64,000 nucleotides of DNA from Candidatus Multivoradales bacterium (GTDB lineage: Bacteria > Acidobacteriota > Thermoanaerobaculia > Multivoradales > J023). A program made the position numbers and the translations under genes. The stretch spans positions 864,001 to 928,000 of the forward strand of contig CBDFLE010000005.1 in assembly GCA_965248925.1 (NCBI GenBank), given 5' to 3'. The notes under the pieces were generated by a model. The model did not search any database. It was not told where the DNA came from and worked only from the letters and a program-made list of their open reading frames with translations. This document shows, one piece after another, positions 54,752 through 64,000 of the stretch. Position 1 is the stretch's first letter. Each line of letters opens with the position of its first letter.

Positions 54752-54891
54752 GGCCTGCAAGTCTCCCCGGCAGCGACTCGCCATTCAGGAGCCTCCCCCT
54801 GTCGTCTTTGGGGGGGTATGGGAAGACAATTCCGACACATTCGCCCCACGAGCGGAATGTGTCAATGAAAGTGAGACACTTTCTTCTGGGA

Positions 54892-55675
54892 ATTAGTACG
54901 GAATCGGTAGTGGCTCCGGCACCATCTTGAAATGGGCTTCAGAGAACGGATTGTCGTTGCTCGTGTAGGGCCGGTTCAGCGACCGTGTCATTCAGAGATC
55001 GGCCAGCAGTAGAGCCACCGGCTTGGATGCCATGCTCGAACCGCGGTCCGAGTGCAAGGTAAGTCGATCTCGCTCAACACCTTGCTTGTCAACACCTTGC
55101 TTGTCAACACCTTGCTTGTCAACACCTTGCTTCTCAACACTGTCGGCAATCAACCGCTTCGCGAGTCCTCCGGACTCGCGGCAGGCGAGCATCCAGCCGG
55201 CGATGTAGCGGCTGAAGACCTCCAGAATTACGTAAAGGTAGTAGTAGGTCCACTTCACCGGGCCATTGAGCTTGGTGATGTCCCACGACCACACCTCGTT
55301 CGGCCCTGTGGCCAGCAGTTCGGGCTTGGTGTAGTTGGGATGACGCCGCTGACGGCGTCGCTCGCGCAGCTCGCCCTCAGACTCCAGGACCCGGTACATG
55401 GTGCGCACCGAGCAGATATGGCGCTGATCCTCGTCCAGCAGCGCCGCCCAGACTTGACGCGGCGAGCGGTCGACGAAGCGCTCCGAGTGCAACACATCGA
55501 GGACCTCCTGGCGTTCAGCGGGCGTCAATGCCAGCGGCGGTCGAGGCCGCGTCGATAGCTGCGGCCCTGCGCCCTGCTGCCGACGGCGGCGATAGAAAGT
55601 GGCTCTGGGGACCGCCAAGGCGGCGCAGGCTGCCTGCACCCCCACCATCTCGGCCAGCGGCGCCACAGCGCTCAT
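54892..55675 (-). pseudogene. IS3 OrfB integrase-core transposase, inactivated
   Basis: PNEVWSWDIT, LHSDRG; TGA at 54992 followed in frame by ...NRPYTSNDNPFSEAHFK and then an apparent C-terminal deletion; 15-bp expansion inside. Confidence 0.85.
55074..55140. repeat. 15-bp tandem repeat, about 4.5 copies, inside IS3 orfB
   Basis: tcaacaccttgcttg units; encodes VEKQG-VDKQG-VDKQG-VDKQG-VE. Confidence 0.92.
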
Positions 55676-55700
55676 GACTGGCTCTCACTCGGCTCGATCC

Positions 55701-56054
55701 CTAGCAGCCGGGAAAGTTTTTTTGGACATCGATGATCGTCTCGGCTTTGTACAGCTGATGCTTGAGCCGGGCAATCTCACGCTCAAGCTCCGCGACGCGG
55801 CGGGCCTCAGCAGCGACCGGCCGACGCTTGCGACCGCGCTTCTTCGACAAACCGGCCAGAGCACTGGCATCGCGTTGCTGGCGCCAATTCGATAGTAGAG
55901 ATGAATACAGACCCTCCCGGCGGAGCAGGGCGCCAATCTCGCCGGGCTTGCTACAGGCGTCGGCAGCCTGGACGATGCTCAGCTTGTACGACGCGCTGTA
56001 CCGACGCCGCTTCGCCTTCTCAGTTACCTCTGGATCTCGTCGGTCAGCGCTCAT
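55701..56054 (-). CDS. IS3 OrfA HTH protein (A7 run near the 3' end, possibly frameshifted)
   Basis: DPEVTEKAKRRRYSASYKL...GEIGALLRREGLYSSLL..WR...IIDVQK. Confidence 0.8.
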   Translation of the reverse strand: MSADRRDPEVTEKAKRRRYSASYKLSIVQAADACSKPGEIGALLRREGLYSSLLSNWRQQRDASALAGLSKKRGRKRRPVAAEARRVAELEREIARLKHQLYKAETIIDVQKNFPGC

Positions 56055-56153
56055 ATCTCGCAGCTCGTGGCTTGGACTCGCCCTGGTGATTGCTCTCCAC
56101 GCCCTCACTAATTTCTCGGTACGGCAGTGTCTCACTTACATTGGCACAGAGGG

Positions 56154-56197
56154 CCGTGGCAGTACAGGGTGGAGATGGTAAGCTTGTGCTCGGTCAT
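56154..56197 (-). pseudogene. 5' stub of a second SymE-like gene, truncated by the IS3
   Basis: 41/44 nt identical to 63616-63659; encodes MTEHKLTISTLYCH versus MTEHKLTISALYRH; GAGGAGGA RBS upstream. Confidence 0.8.
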
Positions 56198-56377
56198 TGG
56201 GAATCCTCCTCTTCCGGAGAGCCGCCGGAACCCTGTCAACAGGGAATATGCGCTCTACGTGACTTTCCTGAACTTCATTTACGGTCTATGTGGATATACG
56301 TTATACGAGTATTTCAAACAAGAGGATATCCACCCTCGCCCACCGAAAACGAAAACTGCCCTTAGAATTGGGGAACG

Positions 56378-56749
56378 ATGCCGAGGAAAAAGCAGCCACC
56401 CACCGACTTTGGACATCGCCTGCCTGCCATCCGCAAGGCCAAAGGCTTCACCCAGGTTCAGCTTGCAGATGTGACCGGGACCACCCAGCGGGCGATCTCC
56501 TACTACGAAACGGAGGCCGGCTATCCACCGATGCCGGCGGTCGTCGCTCTGGCCCAGGCCCTCGGTGTTTCTGCCGATGAGTTGATGGGTCTCAAACAGC
56601 CCCAGGTCGACCTGCTCCAGGACGATCCCGAAACCCGCAGGATGTGGAAGAAGTTTCAGCAGGTCCGGACTCTGCCCGAGAGGGACCAACGAGCCGTAAT
56701 TCGGCTCGTCAATTCGCTTGCCTCAGCGAGTCAGCCCGCCACGGAGTAG
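56378..56749 (+). CDS. XRE-family HTH transcriptional regulator
   Basis: FGHRL..IRKAKGFTQVQLA..TGTTQRAISYYE...LAQALGVSADELMG. Confidence 0.92.
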   Translation: MPRKKQPPTDFGHRLPAIRKAKGFTQVQLADVTGTTQRAISYYETEAGYPPMPAVVALAQALGVSADELMGLKQPQVDLLQDDPETRRMWKKFQQVRTLPERDQRAVIRLVNSLASASQPATE

Positions 56750-56836
56750 GCTACGTCTGCTCTTTCGCTGGGGTTTTTCATGAGAACCCGGCCGAAGGCG
56801 AATCTCAAGAAACGGTCGATACCGGACCCCACGAAG

Positions 56837-57073
56837 TTACGCTTCGTCTCGAAGATGTAGATCGACGTTGATAGCGCACTCTTTCACGGTCCGCACAGCC
56901 GTTTTCCAATCCGCCCAAACAGCGGGATCAGCTGTCCCTTCATCCTGCAAGAGGCTCATACCTCCAAGCAGGGCGCCGAGATCGTCCGACTCGGTGCGTT
57001 GGTAGATCTCTTCGAGGAAAGCGAACATCGCGGCATAGGCTTCCCGTGTAGTTAAAGTATCCCCCATTGCCAC
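56837..57073 (-). CDS. Probable immunity protein of the upstream toxin
   Basis: 78-aa acidic ORF starting 2 nt after the toxin stop; position typical of cognate immunity genes. Confidence 0.7.
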   Translation of the reverse strand: MAMGDTLTTREAYAAMFAFLEEIYQRTESDDLGALLGGMSLLQDEGTADPAVWADWKTAVRTVKECAINVDLHLRDEA

Positions 57074-57075
57074 TC

Positions 57076-58161
57076 CTATTGGCCCGACAGGCCGGTTGTT
57101 GAGTCAAAGATTCGCGGTGTCTGGTTCAACCCGCCGTTTTTGATGACTCCATTGCGGCTCTGGACCCAAACCTGAGTGCCGTCGTCCAGTGTTCGTGCAG
57201 ACCAGACATTACCGAACTTGTCCGTTCCAAGGGCCGTTGAAGCGTCATCTGCGACCCCTTGCAGGAGCTTTCGGTTTGCTGGCGTGTCAGCGAGGTGACC
57301 AGGGGCGTCTCGGAAAATGTGCTTGATCTGACCAGGCTTACTGGGAAACCTCGCTGCCCCCCTTGGTACTCCGCGCGATCCCCGCTGAAAGACCTTACCA
57401 AGTCGAGCAAAGACAGCAGACAGCTTTGACCCAACATTAGGAAGTGCTTTTCGAGTAGCAGCGACAACAAGAGTCGTCTCGTCGACCGGCGAGAGAAGAC
57501 TGACGGCAAACAGCGCCCCCATACCTCGAGCATTGATGTTCTCGATGTATTGCTCCTGGGTGATCTCGCCCCGCATCAAGCGCTGTATATCTTGTTCGAG
57601 AGCCATCGCCGCACGGCTTTCTCGCCCATTGGAGTCGATCTCGTTGATCGGGTTGTTGGCCCCGTAGGTATAGCGGTTCCAGCTTCCAGGCGCGCTGACC
57701 TTGGCGGACCTCGCCGGATCGACACTCAAGAACCGCCCTAGCACTGGGCTACAATACCGAGCGTGCATGTAGTCCAGCTCGCTCCTCGCCCCGGTCCCGG
57801 TCTTGTCCCGCTCATGGCCAGTGAATTTCAGCTGAATCTCGTCAGCCTCCGCGCTGGTCGCCTCTTGACCAAAGGGAAAGTAGTTGTGCAACGCCACCTG
57901 CTGTCCGCCTCGGGTGAAGGGGACAGCCCGACGCGGTTTCCAGCTTGAGAGCTGGTAACCCTCTATGCCTGTTCTACTTAAGCCTCGCTCGGCCCTACTG
58001 CCGGCGGGGTCTTGGTGCTCGAAGGTCCAGAGGCGAGTTTCGGCGTAGCTCGACTCGGAGATCGGCGCGATCGCTGTTGCCGGCATCGTCACCGCCAGGA
58101 GCGCGACGACCAGCCCGAGCGCCATCGTCCAAGTGCTTCTTCCTTTAGCTGCCTGCCTCAT
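57076..58161 (-). CDS. Signal-peptide-bearing mini-Rhs polymorphic toxin
   Basis: Hydrophobic leader LGLVVALLAVTMPATA; Rhs-associated core YFPFG, KFTGHERD, DYMHARY..GRFLSVDP, NRYTY.NNP..IDSNG; C-terminal HIFRDAPGH...GNVW...GTQVWV domain. Confidence 0.85.
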   Translation of the reverse strand: MRQAAKGRSTWTMALGLVVALLAVTMPATAIAPISESSYAETRLWTFEHQDPAGSRAERGLSRTGIEGYQLSSWKPRRAVPFTRGGQQVALHNYFPFGQEATSAEADEIQLKFTGHERDKTGTGARSELDYMHARYCSPVLGRFLSVDPARSAKVSAPGSWNRYTYGANNPINEIDSNGRESRAAMALEQDIQRLMRGEITQEQYIENINARGMGALFAVSLLSPVDETTLVVAATRKALPNVGSKLSAVFARLGKVFQRGSRGVPRGAARFPSKPGQIKHIFRDAPGHLADTPANRKLLQGVADDASTALGTDKFGNVWSARTLDDGTQVWVQSRNGVIKNGGLNQTPRIFDSTTGLSGQ

Positions 58162-58242
58162 GCCGGGCCATTCTACGCCGCGGGTGGCGCTCGAAGACAG
58201 CGGCTAAAGGAGGAAGGGTGGTTGGTGCGGAGGCGGGATGCG

Positions 58243-58301
58243 GTTTTCTTAGGCCGCTTTCTTCGGGCAGTGGGTGTTTTCTTAGGTCGTTTTCGTCGGG
58301 C
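58243..58301. repeat. Two 26-bp direct repeats, 33-bp period
   Basis: gttttcttaggccgctttcttcgggc (58243-58268) and gttttcttaggtcgttttcgtcgggc (58276-58301). Confidence 0.8.
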
Positions 58302-58618
58302 TGGTCGTCGGAGCGAGCGCGGGTCTTTCCGGCAGTTTGGTGCCGGCGGCGCAGCCGCCAAACCAATCTGCACGTTGGGGGCGTGGTGGCGGCGGGGCCG
58401 GAGCCGAGCACGGCGACCGCAGGGCGCCGCGCGCAGGGTACGGAGGCCACGACGCAGGGCGGGTCTTGGGAGGAGGATGGGGAGCCCCCTTGAGGGGGCG
58501 GACGGGGCCGGGCCGAGCCGTCGCAGTGCTGGCTGGTGGATCTCGGCAAGGAGGCCCGGAGCGGGGCGTGGTTCCGAAGCCGCTGACCATCGCAGGCTCG
58601 CGGAGTGCTCACCCCAAG

Positions 58619-58644
58619 TTTCCATAATGCACGCGTTATGGAAA
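58619..58644. other. Symmetric dif/cer-like tyrosine-recombinase site (candidate att)
   Basis: TTTCCATAA-tgcacgcg-TTATGGAAA: perfect 9-bp arms with CATAA/TTATG inner cores as in E. coli dif, about 400 bp downstream of the recombinase gene. Confidence 0.7.
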
Positions 58645-59052
58645 GGCCGTAGGCCCGGAGCCGGGGCGTGTGAGGGCCAGGTCGGATAGGGCGCGCACTA
58701 TCGGACAGCGACCCATGCAAGCCGCGTGACACCTGGGAGGTCCGAGGAGGGGCCCAGGTGGCGCGCGGCTTGCGGAGCGGCTGGCCCGTGCCCGGAGGGA
58801 GCGCAGCGACCGGAGGGACACACGCCCCGGCGGAGCTTGGGGCGAGCTTTCGGAGACTCTTTTCTTGGACTACCTGAAGCCTCGCTCCGGGCCGGTGATC
58901 GGAGGGCTCAGGTGGTGGATCGCAGATGCTCGGGCCGGGGCGGGCAGGGGTGACAAAACAAACACCGCCGAGGGCTGCGTGGCCCGCGAGCGGAGGACGG
59001 CGCAGCCGGCCGCAGCGCGGGACCCGCAGACCCGGACCGCTTCGGGCGGGGG

Positions 59053-60126
59053 TCAGTCCTCCGCCTCGGTCTCGACTACATCGAGTAAGTCCTCGGCGGT
59101 CACTTCATCGCTGCCGTCTTCTTCTGTCGGCGGTGCCACCCGCCGCCCTAGCTTCGCGCCCGGATGGGTTGCCGAGTGGATCGACTTCAGTTTGCGGATC
59201 GATACCTGAGTGTAAATCTGCGTCGTCTCCAGCTTGGCATGGCCGAGCATCTGCTGAATGAAGCGGATATCCGCACCACCTTCGAGCATCAGCGTCGCCA
59301 TCGTGTGGCGGAAGAGATGGCAAGCGCCCGACTTGCCGAGATCGGCGGCGAGCACGTAGCCGCGCACCAGCTGACTCATTCGCGACGGAGCAAACGGCGT
59401 CCCCTGGTTGGTGAGAAAGAGCGTCCCGCCGTCCGGCTCGACCATCAGCGACGGCCGTACCTCAGTGACGTAGCGATCGATCCAGGCCAGCGCCCGCTCG
59501 CCGATCGGGATCATCCAGTCTTTCCGCCCCTTGCCCTGGCGCACCATCACCGTTCCGCGTTCGATGTCGAGATCGTAACGGCCGAGGCCGATCAGCTCAG
59601 CCCGGCGCATGCCGGTCGAGTAGAAGACTTCAAGGATCGTCCGGTCGCGCATCCCGAGTGGGTCGGCGGTGTCGGGCTGGTTGAGCACCTGGTCGGCTTC
59701 CGAGGCGGTCAGCACCGCCGCCGGCAACCGGTGCTCCAGCTTCGGCAGCTCCAGCTCCGAGGCCGGGTTGTAGAGCAGGTGGTTGGCCCGAGTCGCCCAC
59801 TTGAAGAAAGCCCGCACCGGCACCAGCCGCGAGTGCTGCGCCCGGAAAGACAGCGGCCGCCCGTCCCCAGGCTTGCGGTAGTGGTAGAGCCACCTGGCGT
59901 AGCGCTCCAGGATCGGCTTGGTCACTTCCGACGGCCGCGACACCCCACGCTCTTCACACCATGCGATGAGAAACGAGAGGTATAGATGCCGGTTCTCAAC
60001 GGTTCGTGGAGAGTAGTTCTTGATCGCCATCCACTCCAGGTACTGACCCGCCATCACCGCGAAGCCCCGAGGGTCGGTTGGATTGCCCGGCAAGAGGCGG
60101 ATCTTGCGCTCGCCACGGCGCGGCAT
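59053..60126 (-). CDS. XerC/XerD-like site-specific tyrosine recombinase
   Basis: N-terminal SAM-like domain; catalytic STGMRRAEL (R), GKGRK (K), HLFRH, LGHA, TTQIYT (Y). Confidence 0.95.
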   Translation of the reverse strand: MPRRGERKIRLLPGNPTDPRGFAVMAGQYLEWMAIKNYSPRTVENRHLYLSFLIAWCEERGVSRPSEVTKPILERYARWLYHYRKPGDGRPLSFRAQHSRLVPVRAFFKWATRANHLLYNPASELELPKLEHRLPAAVLTASEADQVLNQPDTADPLGMRDRTILEVFYSTGMRRAELIGLGRYDLDIERGTVMVRQGKGRKDWMIPIGERALAWIDRYVTEVRPSLMVEPDGGTLFLTNQGTPFAPSRMSQLVRGYVLAADLGKSGACHLFRHTMATLMLEGGADIRFIQQMLGHAKLETTQIYTQVSIRKLKSIHSATHPGAKLGRRVAPPTEEDGSDEVTAEDLLDVVETEAED

Positions 60127-63100
60127 CAGGGCCCCTCGACCGCCGCCGAGCCGCCGGTACGACGCCCAGATTTACGACATGACGGGCCGTTTTCTCGCAC
60201 CCCCTTATATGCGTTTTTTGCCGAAACCCCACGATTTCCGGCCGAAGTCGTTGATTCTGCTTGGGAAACTGCACCCCGACCACCCCCCGACACCCCCCCG
60301 ACTTGGGGCCGACTTGGCCCCGACTTCTCAGCTTCAGACCCCGACTTCTTTTCGTCGTACCTGAGTGTTTCGACCTCGATCAGCCCCGGCAGTCGCGGCC
60401 GCTCCGGTTCGTCGCTGGCCACGTAAACCAGCTCGTAGACAAAGCTCTGCCCCCGCCCGCCCTGATGCACCAGCAGATACTCAAACTCCTCAAGACGGCG
60501 TAGGTGCAGCTTCAGCTGCGTATTGCCCCAGCCGGTGTGCTCGCGCACCGCCCGCCGGCTGAAACGGTAGTCCGGCCGATCCATCGCCAGCGCCTCACAG
60601 GCTTCGCTGACCATCTCGTCGATCAGCCCCAGCAGGCGCCGCGTCTGCGGCGGCAGCTCATCGAGCGAGCGCCCCAAGACTTCGTGCGCCAGGCGGTTGG
60701 CTGTCTCGATGTCTGTGGCCACCACTTCGACGTACTCCACCTCTCGCCCGTCGACCACCGCCAGCTTCACCTCTCGCTGGTATTGATGCAAAAGAGCAAT
60801 CACGTCGATCAGCGTCAGGTACTTCTCGTGGTCCCGGCGGGTGCGGATTTGCGTATCGAGAAAGGTAAGTTCCGGAGCAAAGGGATTGACCACCGCCAGC
60901 GGCCGCAGCAGCCGCTGCGCGTTCTGGTGCAGCGCCATCACCCCGTCGCGCCGGGTGCGCGAGAGTAGCCCCTCCAGCGTCCGCCGCTGCCGCTGCAGCC
61001 GGTGAATCGCCCGCGTCTGCTCTCGCGCCTCGTCCACCGAGAGCACCAAGCAGCGATTCAAAAGCTCTTCATCGATGTCGATTGCCGTGGTCGTCAAGAA
61101 GATCATCACCGGCCCTTCGACGTGGTACTCGTGCGTCACCAGCTTGCCCGTTGAAGCATCCTTGCCGGTCGAGGCAATCGTCAGCTCGCCCTCCGACTGA
61201 AGCAGCTTCAAGGCGTAGCTAGCCCGCTCGGCCCCCTCCTCCTCGACGATCGCCAGGATCTTGTGCTGCAGATCCGTTTCGCCCATGTAGAACAGCGATT
61301 GCCCGGTCATCGCCGAGTACTTCACTTGCTGCTCACCTGGCATCAGCGACAGCACCGCCTCCATCAGCGCCGACTTGCCGGCCGCCGAGCTCGACTGCAC
61401 CACCACCGCCAAAGGCCGATCCAGAAAGCGCGAGGTGGCCGCCATATAGCCCATGAGCTTGTTGGTTTCCTCGCCCACCACCCCGCAGCGCTCGAAGTCC
61501 GCGAGGATGCGCACCAAGAGATCTGGTGAGCGCAGCAGCTCAAGCGCCGCTTCCTTCTCTCCCTCTGACAGCTCCACCGCCGTCGACTGCGGCTCGAGTG
61601 CTGAGCGGATCTGCTCGTCCTGCAGCTCCTCGAGCTTCAGCAGCACCTTGCCCAGATCCTTCTTGACCACCTTCTCATCGACCCCCAGTTCAGCGGCTGC
61701 CGCCCGCTGAAACACCGCGCGCGGCCGCGCAGCGTAGAGATCGAAGGTATCGACGTGGAAGGCGTCGCCGCGCGACGCCAAAACATTGACCTTGAGCACG
61801 TCGTAAGCCAGGTTCTTCGGCAGACCGCGAATCCTGTAGCGACGATCGCCCAGCGACAGCACCACCTCCTGATCGCGCACTTCCGCCGGCATATCTGGCG
61901 GAGGCGGGGCGGGCAATGGGGAGGCTTCGGCCGGGGCGACCGGCGCCAATACCGCCTCTGCGGCGGTATTAGGCCGTGTCGATTGCTCTGCCGGCGGTGC
62001 CAATGAGCCCACTATGGGCTCGTTGCCCAGTTTCACGTCGGGCGCCTTGCCTTTCCCGAGCCACTGTGCTTTGCGGATCACCACCCCCAGCGACTTCGCG
62101 GCTGGCGTCACCTTCAGCGCATATTCGTTGGCGTCCATGCCGCGCGGAAAGTGAATGCGATAGGCGTCGATCCCGGCACCCACCAGCTTCTCGGCCAGCT
62201 TCCCGGCGGCCTTCTCGCCGGCATCGTCCCGGTCGTAGGCGATCAGCACCCGCTCGACTCCGTGGCCACCGAAGGCTGCCAGCATCTCCGCGGTGAAACC
62301 CTGGATGCCGTAGGCGCTGGTGACGTTGCGGTAGCCCGCGCACCAGAAGGTCAGAGCGTCGATCAGCGACTCGCAAAGGATGATCTCGGTCGAGGCCACC
62401 AGAGCTTCCGCATTGAAGATCCCTCGATGCGGACCCGGCAGATAGAGATGCAAGGGTGTCCCCTTGCGAAGATTCAGTGTGATCTTTCGGCCGTAGATCT
62501 CCACCACCTGGCCTGTTGAATCGAAGACCGGAAAGACGATCGAGCCATTGAAGTGCTCATGACCCGACTTGCGCAGCACGCCGAGCTTCTGCAATCGACC
62601 CCGCATCTCCTTACCCGCCTTCAGCTGCTTCGATGGCAGTCGATAGCCCAGCGTCCGGTTGGCGAAGCCAAGCCTGAAATGCTCGATCATCTCCGGGTGC
62701 TTCAGCCCTCTGCTCTCCAGATAAGCCAGCGCCTCCGGGCTCTCCTTCAAAGCCTCGTGGTAGTAGCCGACGACCTGACCGAGTAGCTCCGCGTCCTCTG
62801 CTTCCGCCACCACCGGCGAAGGCAGGGCCGGCGCCGAAGGCAACGCCTCTGCGACCGCCTCCGCCGGCAGATCCGAGCGCAGCAGCTCGACCGCGTGGCG
62901 AAACGAAACCCCGCGATCTCGCATCACCCAATCGATCACCGACCCGCCCGCCTGGCAGGCGCCCAGGCAATGCCACAGATTCTTCTTCGGCGAGATCACC
63001 AGCGACGGCTCGCGGTCGTCGTGAAACGGGCAGAGCCCCAGCAGGTCCGCCCCGTGGCGTTTCAGTTTCACCCCACGGGCCAGGGCCAGGCGCTCCACCG

Positions 63101-63149
63101 ATACTTCTCGCTTTAGTCGCTCTACCTCGGCTTCTGGAATCCTGCTCAC
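60126..63149 (-). CDS. CHC2 zinc-finger DnaG-type primase fused to a P-loop ATPase/helicase
   Basis: CPFH...WHCLGAC, TOPRIM LCESLIDAL / YDRDDAG, Walker A-like SSSAAGKS, IVEEEG, LLNR; GTG 63149 overlaps the upstream stop. Confidence 0.9.
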   Translation of the reverse strand: MSRIPEAEVERLKREVSVERLALARGVKLKRHGADLLGLCPFHDDREPSLVISPKKNLWHCLGACQAGGSVIDWVMRDRGVSFRHAVELLRSDLPAEAVAEALPSAPALPSPVVAEAEDAELLGQVVGYYHEALKESPEALAYLESRGLKHPEMIEHFRLGFANRTLGYRLPSKQLKAGKEMRGRLQKLGVLRKSGHEHFNGSIVFPVFDSTGQVVEIYGRKITLNLRKGTPLHLYLPGPHRGIFNAEALVASTEIILCESLIDALTFWCAGYRNVTSAYGIQGFTAEMLAAFGGHGVERVLIAYDRDDAGEKAAGKLAEKLVGAGIDAYRIHFPRGMDANEYALKVTPAAKSLGVVIRKAQWLGKGKAPDVKLGNEPIVGSLAPPAEQSTRPNTAAEAVLAPVAPAEASPLPAPPPPDMPAEVRDQEVVLSLGDRRYRIRGLPKNLAYDVLKVNVLASRGDAFHVDTFDLYAARPRAVFQRAAAAELGVDEKVVKKDLGKVLLKLEELQDEQIRSALEPQSTAVELSEGEKEAALELLRSPDLLVRILADFERCGVVGEETNKLMGYMAATSRFLDRPLAVVVQSSSAAGKSALMEAVLSLMPGEQQVKYSAMTGQSLFYMGETDLQHKILAIVEEEGAERASYALKLLQSEGELTIASTGKDASTGKLVTHEYHVEGPVMIFLTTTAIDIDEELLNRCLVLSVDEAREQTRAIHRLQRQRRTLEGLLSRTRRDGVMALHQNAQRLLRPLAVVNPFAPELTFLDTQIRTRRDHEKYLTLIDVIALLHQYQREVKLAVVDGREVEYVEVVATDIETANRLAHEVLGRSLDELPPQTRRLLGLIDEMVSEACEALAMDRPDYRFSRRAVREHTGWGNTQLKLHLRRLEEFEYLLVHQGGRGQSFVYELVYVASDEPERPRLPGLIEVETLRYDEKKSGSEAEKSGPSRPQVGGVSGGGRGAVSQAESTTSAGNRGVSAKNAYKGVRENGPSCRKSGRRTGGSAAVEGP

Positions 63150-63370
63150 TGTGCCGCCCCCGACTCCACCGGAGTAAGCACCAAACGATCCTGCTCGACC
63201 TCCACCCGCAGCCTCTCCCCGCAGCGAAACCCCGCCGCTTCTAGCCAAGCACCCCGCATCCGCACAAACGGCACAAGCCGCACCGAGCACGGGCCGTTGA
63301 CGTAGTGCGGCGCACGGGGCTCGTGCAGGGTAGAGATCGTCAGATATCGCTCAGCTCTCGGCTCAGACAC
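63146..63370 (-). CDS. SymE-family (AbrB-fold) small protein
   Basis: PFVRMRGAWLEAAGFRCGERLRVEV...LVLT matches the SymE pattern PxxxLxGxWLxxAGFxxGxxvxVxV. Confidence 0.85.
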   Translation of the reverse strand: MSEPRAERYLTISTLHEPRAPHYVNGPCSVRLVPFVRMRGAWLEAAGFRCGERLRVEVEQDRLVLTPVESGAAQ

Positions 63371-63659
63371 AGGCCACTCCCGCCAGGCGACCCGCCGAGA
63401 CCTCCTCGATCCGGCCGATCTGATCCGCCGGCACCCACACCACCGGCTGCATTTCCCTCTCCTCCTCGCCCTCTTCCACCCGCGTCACCACCAAACGCCC
63501 GTCACCCACGACGTCCACCCGCACCTGGGCTCCAGGATAGAAGCCGGCGTCGCGCATCCACAGCCCCGCCAGCTGCAGCAGCGGTAGCTGCGCGGACTTG
63601 GGGAAGGCGTGCCAACCGTGGCGGTACAGGGCGGAGATGGTTAGCTTGTGCTCGGTCAT
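63363..63659 (-). CDS. SymE-family (AbrB-fold) small protein
   Basis: PLLQLAGLWMRDAGFYPGAQVRVDV..GRLVVT; GGAGG RBS. Confidence 0.85.
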   Translation of the reverse strand: MTEHKLTISALYRHGWHAFPKSAQLPLLQLAGLWMRDAGFYPGAQVRVDVVGDGRLVVTRVEEGEEEREMQPVVWVPADQIGRIEEVSAGRLAGVACV

Positions 63660-63712
63660 CGGTCTGCCTCCAAATTTCTTCAGTTAACTCAGATGCAACT
63701 CATCTGTGCTCT

Positions 63713-63741
63713 ACAGTACCAATCGGTTGCATTGGTGTCAA
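63713..63741 (-). promoter_or_regulatory. Sigma70 promoter of the SymE-primase-recombinase operon, with an operator palindrome in its spacer
   Basis: Minus strand TTGACA-17-TACTGT; ACCAAT-N7-ATTGGT palindrome (63718-63736) fills the spacer. Confidence 0.7.
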
Positions 63742-63753
63742 GCCTGCAATGTC

Positions 63754-63782
63754 TTGACGCATACCTTCGGGTTGCCTAGAAT
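63754..63782 (+). promoter_or_regulatory. Sigma70 promoter of the XRE gene
   Basis: TTGACG-17-TAGAAT. Confidence 0.7.
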
Positions 63783-63828
63783 TAACTCAGGACGGAAAAA
63801 GGCGTACAAGAAAGGACTGGAAGGTTCT

Positions 63829-64000
63829 ATGAGCCAAGAAAGCGGCACGATCAAGACACGGTTCGGCAAGCGAGTTCTTGAGCTACGCAAGACTCGCAGC
63901 TGGAAGCAAGACGAGCTTGGCAAAAAGCTCGGCACTTCGGGCGTCGTCATCGGGCGCTACGAGCGAGGCGAGGTGATGCCGTCGATCAAGGTGGCTCAGA
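63829..64000 (+). CDS. XRE-family HTH regulator (partial, runs off the window)
   Basis: Manual translation MSQESGTIKTRFGKRVLELRKTRSWKQDELGKKLGTSGVVIGRYERGEVMPSIKVAQ... Confidence 0.88.
   Translation, partial: MSQESGTIKTRFGKRVLELRKTRSWKQDELGKKLGTSGVVIGRYERGEVMPSIKVAQ

Follow-up and report, generated by a model that had tools for sequence, protein, structure and literature searches.

Some integrative elements, among them tRNA-gene islands and phages 21 and e14 in icd, carry their attP within a copy of the 3' part of the gene they target, such that the target stays intact upon insertion and its old 3' end is displaced. For the genes encoding Rhs toxins, Jackson et al. 2009 (BMC Genomics, PMC2935791) describe C-terminal displacement through homologous recombination, a process that involves core fragments of variable length and for which a circular intermediate was postulated; in the available sections of that paper, no integrase is known to accompany Rhs. 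Integrase-like genes near Rhs genes were remarked on by Steele et al. 2017 (PMC5727410), with no mechanism given in the available sections of that source, and we found no description of an integrase-borne Rhs tip element in the full-text literature, a corpus whose coverage excludes subscription journals and supplements. Here we analyse a 64,000-nucleotide stretch of DNA from Candidatus Multivoradales bacterium (hereafter the window; C5:864001-928000 in a genome of 7.98 Mb, 6 contigs and 96.9% completeness), in which one open reading frame (ORF), the L gene (57076..58161, minus strand), codes for a 361-residue protein that joins a predicted Sec-type leader to the tip of an Rhs protein. We consider it likely that a small integrative element which exchanges Rhs tips, and thereby brings about a form of C-terminal displacement, gave rise to the L gene as its right-hand junction product.

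The L gene is an in-frame fusion, in which residues 1-82 are encoded by the element and residues 83-361 by a cassette, designated 'e', that comprises an Rhs core, a toxin and an immunity gene. The predicted Sec-type signal peptide (residues 1-30; 58072..58161, minus strand, like all other parts of the gene) starts with MRQAAKGRSTWT, has K6 and R8 in its n-region, and continues through a 14-residue hydrophobic stretch (ALGLVVALLAVTM) to PATA|IAP, with an ATA|IA motif at its end. This is followed by a linker of 52 residues (31-82; 57916..58071), in which ETRLWTFE occupies residues 41-48 and which overlaps a putative attP arm, such that element DNA would here be read as protein. Rhs-derived sequence begins at residue 83 (57915), and only 11 such residues lie ahead of the Rhs-associated core (TIGR03696, residues 94-179; 57625..57882), which was matched in NCBIfam at E 7.3e-17 and with 61.6 bits against a cut-off of 32.5. 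The core contains the invariant D148 and D176 and a second protease motif, DSNGR; its C-terminal end reads ...NNPINEIDSNG. A helical, partly hydrophobic pre-toxin spacer (residues 180-274; 57340..57624), ending ...SRGVPRGAARF, leads into a C-terminal toxin domain of 87 residues (275-361; 57079..57339), whose modelled fold is like that of the RelE, colicin D/E5 and CdiA-CT ribonuclease (RNase) toxins. ORF analysis and TIGR03696 thus confirm the architecture given in the initial annotation, which had described a leader, a ~55-residue linker with ETRLWTFE, a core running to PINEIDSNG, a spacer and a compact C-terminal domain. No RHS_repeat, PAAR, shell or toxin family was found in the 361-residue protein in Pfam at E<=1. 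Public gene calls begin this protein family at Met13 (MALGL..., as in P0002), which drops the basic n-region (window 58126-58161); since relatives without Met13 retain the motif M-x-x-A-A-K-G-R-x-x-W, Met1 is the likelier start. An AlphaFold 2 (AF2) model of the whole protein has a mean predicted local distance difference test score (pLDDT) of 51 and is informative only for the signal helix (residues 9-25) and the toxin domain.

The leader recurs across the genome as part of a multigene unit. The integrase has 14 genomic copies with 81-100% identity (tblastn), and ORF tracing identified 12 L genes with identical leader and linker at four loci, all of which start at one nucleotide. Each of these closes a unit of ~7.5-7.9 kb that contains a regulator, two SymE-like genes, a primase-helicase and a Xer-like tyrosine recombinase. 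Seven such units are arrayed in C5 (with a period of 7.5-7.9 kb, longer where an insertion sequence (IS) is present), three lie in C6 at ~3.50 Mb, one in C6 at ~1.35 Mb and one in C4 at ~70-78 kb. Five of the six element loci, two diverged ones included in the count, sit directly behind a full-length rhs ORF of 1455-1716 residues; the rhs ORF heading the C5 array (C5:983795-988852, 1685 residues, RHS_repeat E 1.9e-16) has its own hydrophobic N-terminus, and the genome has 23 long Rhs-type ORFs in all, as judged by ORF tracing.

Read in the order of transcription, with a letter for each core-toxin-immunity cassette, the C5 array is composed of shell, a, a, b, c, c, d, d, e. Duplicated cassettes share a downstream backbone variant and differ in the upstream backbone, whose leader is fused to the cassette. 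Since the cassette tracks the downstream backbone, the mobile unit is to be drawn between two joints, as cassette, regulator, SymE genes, primase, integrase and leader. The C5 locus and C6:3495911 share unit 'a' (7542 bp) with 100% identity; their host rhs genes are 96.8% identical, with similarity that stops within their 5' parts and with unrelated upstream flanks, a pattern that fits transposition of the unit. Cassette 'e', the tip of the L gene, occurs once in the genome. Behind it lie a helix-turn-helix (HTH) gene and a 44-nt start of symE2 that is cut by an IS, so 'e' belonged to an eighth unit, and the L gene is the leader of the seventh unit joined to the cassette of this IS-cut eighth one. 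The same HTH gene, symE2 remnant and IS truncation led us to reject the idea that cassette 'e' is an ancestral chromosomal tip.

The joint between leader and Rhs sequence lies at 57916|57915, within a putative core-type recombination site with a 10-8-10 layout (57898..57927, minus strand) that reads GCTGTCCCCT / TCACCCGA / GGCGGACAGC. Across copies, the right arm varies, giving GCTGTCCCCT / TCACCCGA / GG(n)GG(n)CAGC, with imperfectly complementary 10-nt arms around an 8-nt spacer. In the L gene 8 of the 10 arm positions are complementary, and an independent search for inverted repeats returned arms at 57900-57911 and 57916-57927. At the protein level, residues 1-82 of leader and linker (...KPRRAVPF) are fused to TRGGQQVALHNY(F/Y)PFGQE, and full-length genes have ...LHLDHLGTPRQI ahead of the same residues. 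At the DNA level, the element-specific ...GCTGTCCCCTTC and the shell-specific ...CCCCGGCAGATC both continue as ACCCGAGG; the stretch common to element and shell copies after the joint is ACCCGAGGnGGnCAGCAGG, and the overlap common to the shell side and the leader side is TCACCCGAGG, with the occupied gene C6:1342653 as an exception.

Several further features place the exchange at this point. Repeat-unit boundaries fall no more than 8 nt from the joint, upstream of which leader and shell have no homology. Polymorphisms at +9 and +12 track the downstream cassette, not the upstream backbone: three pairs combine the same upstream backbone with a different +9/+12 haplotype, and another three combine different upstream contexts with the same cassette and haplotype. 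Unoccupied paralogues hold an intact site; one of these, C6:1743531, matches two occupied genes at every position of the 650 nt that precede the joint and diverges from +8 onwards, with 102 mismatches in 300 nt. The second of two readings offered in the initial annotation, in which an Rhs tip has recombined onto an element-supplied leader, is thus borne out, with leader and linker identical in 12 copies, sequence from residue 83 onward varying by cassette, and a joint that lies in an inverted repeat.

A related arrangement was found in a genome of the same family but another genus (G016), where four tandem units lie behind a 3747-residue Rhs-type gene, with integrase and primase 82% and 74% identical to those described here. 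The leader of these units is 41-43% identical and is fused at ...GCSPVPRG straight to a toxin domain, with no Rhs core. Their site has a perfect 10-bp inverted repeat, GCTGTTCCCC / TGTCCCAA / GGGGAACAGC, which stands ahead of the toxin domain rather than the core; its left arm, GGGCTGTYCCC, is conserved, and the full-length gene of G016 has only GTCCCAAGGGG in common with the site. The four units carry CT1, CT1, CT2 and CT2, and here too the leader variants track the upstream backbone and the cassettes the downstream one. Neither chance nor plain homology readily accounts for one site architecture that serves different positions in two different toxin genes. The spacer of the L protein itself contains the VPRG joint motif of this sister lineage, within ...SRGVPRGAARF (57343-57363, residues 267-273), and from this similarity the toxin domain of the L protein may once have been moved by a VPRG-type element.

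More widely, a search with the integrase as query identified 73 distinct loci in many phyla, nearly all with an adjoining primase, of which 25 also match residues 1-185 of the L protein. These 25 are mostly from Acidobacteriota and often have an Rhs core on either side; it is chiefly in this phylum that an association with Rhs cores is seen, other phyla contributing a few loci. Elements of an Acidobacteriaceae type have equally sharp in-frame joints at other core positions, with an upstream ORF that lacks a signal peptide. A search of a collection of viral contigs with the primase gave 1 locus, at 65% identity.

To follow the leader beyond this genome, a profile was built from seven leaders and searched against 1.84 billion proteins with a threshold of E<=1e-3. 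It matched 101 representatives, 96 of them outside this genome (as 50%-identity clusters), always at the N-terminus and in proteins of 68-388 residues. By comparison, a word-index search with residues 1-84 of the leader returned only this genome's own 9 proteins, relatives coming to light only with a hidden Markov model. A domain scan that covered the first 60 matches found TIGR03696 in 25, starting at about residue 48-93 (in one case at residue 208), and the remaining leader proteins include some with CdiA_C, a barnase-type ribonuclease, Ntox10 or Tox-SHH right behind the leader. The recurrence of the leader profile on diverse toxin domains, proposed in the initial annotation as a check, is therefore seen in 96 outside clusters with varied toxins.

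The hydrophobic regions of these 96 relatives vary widely in sequence and keep a layout of basic, hydrophobic and A-x-A segments: a strongly hydrophobic 12-mer is present in 69 of the 96, preceded by K or R in 58 of those 69 (the best 12-mer of the L protein has a mean Kyte-Doolittle value of 2.89), and ten relatives have a lipobox-like motif. Retention of the layout despite this turnover in sequence argues for selection at the protein level for export, and in this comparative sense the Sec-type signal predicted earlier finds support. A second conserved feature of the leader and linker is a nucleotide block, AAACTCGC(C/G)TCTGG, that encodes ETR(L/V)W (58027..58040, minus strand) and that may serve, ~115 nt from the crossover, as an arm-type or accessory binding site. 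Third codon positions of this block are conserved across element lineages whose integrases are only ~55% identical, which makes a DNA site the likeliest explanation; the reading of ETRLWTFE as a protein motif was rejected because the conservation, third codon positions included, is at the nucleotide level.

In the mechanism that we propose, each unit has genes for a divergent HTH regulator, two SymE-like proteins, a primase-helicase and a Xer-like recombinase, together with a last, promoter-distal ORF that encodes only a predicted Sec signal peptide and linker and would read across the attachment site into whatever DNA adjoins it. In a free circular form, this leader ORF would run into the element's own cassette of Rhs core, toxin and immunity gene. 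If this form then recombined with a resident full-length rhs gene, at the 8-10-bp match located where the core starts, there would be two outcomes: the element's cassette would be fused in frame to the host shell, and the displaced resident tip would be fused in frame to the element's leader. Repeated insertion would generate tandem arrays. The integrase is the predicted catalyst of the tip exchange, the element is probably self-replicating, and a circle would be expected to exist in this organism. Export by the leader may take the orphan tip to the periplasm, where it could act as a weapon or be kept from the cytoplasm with its immunity gene still transcribed.

Three self-closing contigs bear on the circular form. 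One of these (L055) has 7303 bp with a 63-nt terminal overlap and carries an integrase, a leader-YD-core-toxin gene, an immunity gene, HTH genes and a primase; it may be the predicted free form of a related element, unless it is a collapsed repeat. The other two (L022 and L025; 8003 and 7594 bp after removal of the overlap) are contigs of Myxococcota metagenome-assembled genomes with the same integrase-primase family, other small cargo and no Rhs or leader, which indicates that the element family is broader than its toxin-targeting branch.

A bolder reading, which we put forward tentatively and hold with slightly less conviction than its negation, is that each unit is an autonomous 'toxin-tip replicon', a selfish element that replicates itself and exploits the Rhs shell to deliver a toxin of its own through in-frame, site-specific integration. 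If so, carriers would kill non-carriers, favouring spread of the element, and the Sec leader would either make displaced tips into exported, shell-free toxins or dispose of them safely with the immunity gene still expressed. Furthermore, the postulated circular intermediate of Rhs C-terminal displacement would gain a concrete, enzyme-driven form.

A number of observations weigh against an integrase-driven exchange of tips as set out above. For this genome no excised circle, empty site or recombination product was observed, and the activity of the integrase and its target are both read from sequence. Of nine sequencing runs listed, four from a single sample contain most of the stretch, and none is listed for RNA; every informative joint is embedded in repeats of >1 kb with 97-100% identity, so contigs from such runs could not distinguish the alternative forms. 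The occupied rhs gene C6:1342653 has ACGCGCGG and not ACCCGAGG past the joint, with only TCAC in common with the leader side; later gene conversion could explain this exception. Unit 'a' could have spread by homologous recombination, as both host genes are identical over 651 nt before the joint, and the closure of L055 may reflect a collapsed tandem repeat instead of a circle. In addition, leader and linker have a dN/dS of about 0.8-1.1 between lineages and ETRLWTFE is conserved at the nucleotide level, so part of what is read as 'protein' appears to be a DNA site.

Of the alternatives, the one that survives best, albeit as an unlikely one, is the first reading of the initial annotation, in which the L protein is a free-standing minimal toxin exported by Sec, whose core would fold alone, cleave after DSNG and free the toxin, the mobile-element neighbours being incidental. 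The conserved layout of the signal peptide speaks for it, as does the leader-core-toxin architecture in 25 of the 60 scanned leader proteins, but the leader is fused to its tip at a recombinase site and its counterpart in the sister lineage carries toxins without a core. D148 and D176, invariant in 25 aligned proteins, are likewise what such a protease would need to keep, but conserved core residues are also explained by cassettes that cycle through the full-length position. According to the available sections of PMC8636562, Rhs proteins have two DPxGL-type aspartyl-protease motifs before the toxin, and solved Rhs structures have the protease plug enclosed within the barrel. In the L protein the two motifs are VDPARS and IDSNGR (28 versus 22 residues from start to start), the second of which lacks the consensus P and L (DSNGR versus DPxGL). 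When modelled by AF2 without a shell, the core region has a pLDDT of 25-37 and residues 25-184 are below 50, and this apparently unfolded core gives no support to an autonomous self-cleaving module. The description of the L protein as a minimal self-cleaving toxin thus found no support. One further protein favours free-standing toxins: P0015, on an unrelated contig, combines a different, unrelated signal peptide with a single YD-like repeat, an Rhs core and the same toxin domain, and judging by this protein short leader-core-toxin proteins may have arisen more than once.

A poorer fit, and in our view quite improbable, is an array of orphan tips built by RecA-dependent homologous recombination as in the model of Jackson et al., with integrase and primase as a passenger element whose recombinase acts elsewhere. 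Rhs paralogues in this genome are 95-98% identical and clearly recombining, and the 5' and 3' halves of the core are mosaic; the identical 651-nt tract upstream of the joint points the same way. Yet leader and shell, which have no homology upstream, switch haplotype no more than 8 nt downstream of the joint. Given the lack of upstream homology, a RecA-type crossover would need to fall tens of bases downstream of the joint and would then leave an element-derived stretch behind every leader, contrary to observation. A classical orphan array without integrase units does exist at C6:2440015-2457561 (a 1672-residue rhs gene followed by six fragment ORFs); its fragments, however, start variably, as ORFs of 266 to 717 residues, against the single-nucleotide start of the 12 L genes. 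The inverted-repeat site, moreover, is conserved in G016 at a different target position, and several lineages each have a sharp joint of their own.

A chance in-frame extension of an orphan fragment, which the initial annotation had tied to an unconserved leader, or an artefact of collapsed or expanded repeats in the assembly, is scarcely credible: GC-rich DNA has few stop codons and identical 7.8-kb tandem units are difficult to assemble, but the 12 identical paralogous copies are spread over four loci, the same architecture is present in the independent assembly of G016 and the leader is shared by 96 public protein clusters, with start codon, basic n-region, hydrophobic core and AxA motif all kept.

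The toxin domain has five invariant residues (H281, R284, H289, D292 and R297) and aligns with proteins named as Rhs, PT-HINT, PAAR, WXG100 and SitA5; it has no sequence-family match in Pfam or NCBIfam. Modelled alone by AF2 it reaches a pLDDT of 92.6. In a wide search with VIA-align, 13 of the top 14 matches were small RNase or RelE/ParE-type toxins, led by 8ey4_A (Z 6.3, root-mean-square deviation 3.2, 77 residues aligned), 6cp9_A (5.2), 7vd7_A (5.1), 3u97_A (5.1) and 5znm_B (4.5). These fold matches are middling, the best Z of 6.3 lying, like the others, below the tool's own level for a firm call, and a Foldseek comparison of the model with the PDB gave no match at E<=0.001, both of which count against the assignment. 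From the model, the toxin would be an RNase. Like the BECR-type RNase toxins (CdiA-CT, colicin D and E5, BrnT, RelE/HigB), it has a small alpha-plus-beta fold with invariant His and Arg that are covered by a modelled immunity protein; unlike them it lacks a sequence-family match, and the likeness comes from middling Z values of a predicted structure.

The candidate immunity gene of cassette 'e' (56837..57073, minus strand) follows the L stop codon after a 2-nt gap and codes for 78 residues. The protein has 89 homologues of the same size, and in two records these stand beside toxin homologues (P0193 and P0032, with consecutive locus tags; P0128 and P0014, on one contig). A model of the complex of toxin and 78-residue protein has a median score of 0.62, against 0.02 for the best of 3 controls, with at least 80% of contacts in agreement between runs and a partner pLDDT of at least 78; the mark used for this score is reached by 116 of 157 solved complexes and by 2 of 215 mismatched pairs, counts that are rough given the custom alignments used. 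The modelled interface covers the invariant residues of the toxin. These models support the view that the 78-residue neighbour binds the toxin as its immunity protein.

Upstream of the L gene lie the remaining genes of the unit. The Xer-like tyrosine recombinase (59053..60126, minus strand) matches PF00589 Phage_integrase (E 3e-37) and the 'XerC' subfamily NF002331 (427.7 bits against a cut-off of 371). It falls below the cut-offs of the integron-integrase models TIGR02249 (101 bits against 265) and NF011946 (70.6 against 435) and is thus not an integron integrase. The primase-helicase-like protein (60126..63290, minus strand; 1054 residues) has a CHC2 zinc finger, a DnaG core and a Toprim domain, and its C-terminal half has no family match. 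Two overlapping small genes with family matches to the SymE/AbrB fold (63146-63370 and 63363-63659, minus strand) are followed by a divergent XRE HTH regulator of unit d2 (63706..64000, plus strand), which extends past the end of the window. A scan of the window for tRNA genes gave 0, indicating that this is not a tRNA-targeting island.

The integrase gene is separated from the L gene by a spacer (58162..59052, minus strand) with two 26-nt direct repeats and a conserved block. The repeats (58243-58268 and 58276-58301) are 88% identical, have a spacing of 33 nt and lie 80-140 nt upstream of the L start. The block, a non-coding 75 bp (58631-58704), is conserved in G016, G009 and L023 and is 77-81% identical in the first two. 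An AT-rich palindrome, TTTCCATAATGC..GCGTTATGGAAA, is present at 58619-58644. A scan for sigma-70 promoters across 56300-59200 found 0 sites where 0.4 were expected. The spacer may hold a putative attP arm, a promoter, an operator or an origin.

On the other side of the cassette, the truncated eighth unit retains an XRE/RstR-like HTH regulator (56378..56749, plus strand), whose relative position and orientation are those of the HTH genes of other units, and a symE2-like 5' remnant (56154..56197, minus strand; 41 of 44 nt identical to an intact copy) that is cut by the IS. The latter is a multi-copy IS3-like element (54853..56153, minus strand) with >30 near-identical genomic copies; in this copy, OrfB has a four-fold KQGVD tandem repeat (about 55020-55090) and appears shortened.

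Two of the element loci are diverged. At C6:3617906-3631757, where the integrase is 81% identical, a frameshifted leader is joined to a 784-residue shell-plus-core fragment with the same toxin end as the full-length gene upstream; the joint of this lineage, at C6 ~3.63 Mb, seems to lie deeper in the shell by ~600 codons. The other (C4:254174-260172) has a VPRG-type leader interrupted in frame by a stop at codon 69, lacks an rhs gene upstream, and is a decayed element at a non-rhs site. The genome also has six giant Rhs-type ORFs of 3543-3572 residues with a core near the C-terminus, several of them in tandem (C5:1234922-1258164, C5:2318242-2356514 and C6:5202499-5213130). No TssC sheath gene was found in the genome, at 96.9% completeness, so Rhs proteins here are probably not cargo of a type VI secretion system; PAAR gave 3 small matches elsewhere in the genome. 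The initial annotation had taken Rhs toxins normally to have PAAR/VgrG or other delivery domains; a need for PAAR or VgrG does not apply here, where full-length Rhs proteins start with signal-like hydrophobic N-termini of their own and TssC was not found.

For the acquisition of tips and the formation of orphan-tip arrays, the sole explanation so far has been homologous recombination involving hypothetical circles. This locus, together with its relatives, offers a testable enzymatic mechanism, with a 28-bp site, a candidate arm site, a replication gene and built-in re-expression of the displaced tip. If true, it would provide a natural system for the in-frame, site-specific swapping of protein C-termini, the unit of selection would be the toxin cassette and not the Rhs gene, and there would be an explanation for the short proteins, named 'RHS repeat-associated core domain-containing' and equipped with signal peptides, that recur in metagenomes of soil and sediment.

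Known systems resemble the proposed element in different respects. P4-like satellites are ~8 kb long and have an integrase, a zinc-finger/Toprim primase with a long C-terminal part and small regulators; here, by contrast, the target is a toxin gene, and no capsid-hijacking or conjugation genes were recognised. In the R64 shufflon, the Rci recombinase swaps PilV C-termini on a constant N-terminal body via sites in the coding region. Whereas the shufflon inverts resident segments, the exchange proposed here would proceed by integration and excision of a mobile unit that brings in segments from outside. Recombinase-associated immunity arrays have reportedly been described in Bacteroidales by Ross and colleagues in 2019; in these arrays, as among integron cassettes, a tyrosine recombinase leads toxin- or immunity-related cassettes to accumulate at one site. 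Unlike in either system, every cassette here has a recombinase and a replication gene of its own, and insertion is in frame within a coding sequence.

The proposed mechanism is a variant of two processes, the action of gene-3'-end-replacing integrative elements and the displacement of Rhs tips. Elements of the former kind restore the same function to their target; here a different toxin is supplied, together with an immunity gene of its own, the end that it displaces would be re-expressed from the leader of the element, and the window has no tRNA gene. As in the model of Jackson et al., in the available sections of that paper (PMC2935791), a new core-plus-tip replaces the tip of an rhs gene, the old tip is left downstream with its immunity gene, and arrays grow. 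In contrast to that model, the tip here is carried by a unit that encodes a tyrosine recombinase and a primase of its own, the joint is fixed at a single nucleotide of an inverted-repeat site, and the displaced tip gains a start codon and a predicted signal peptide.

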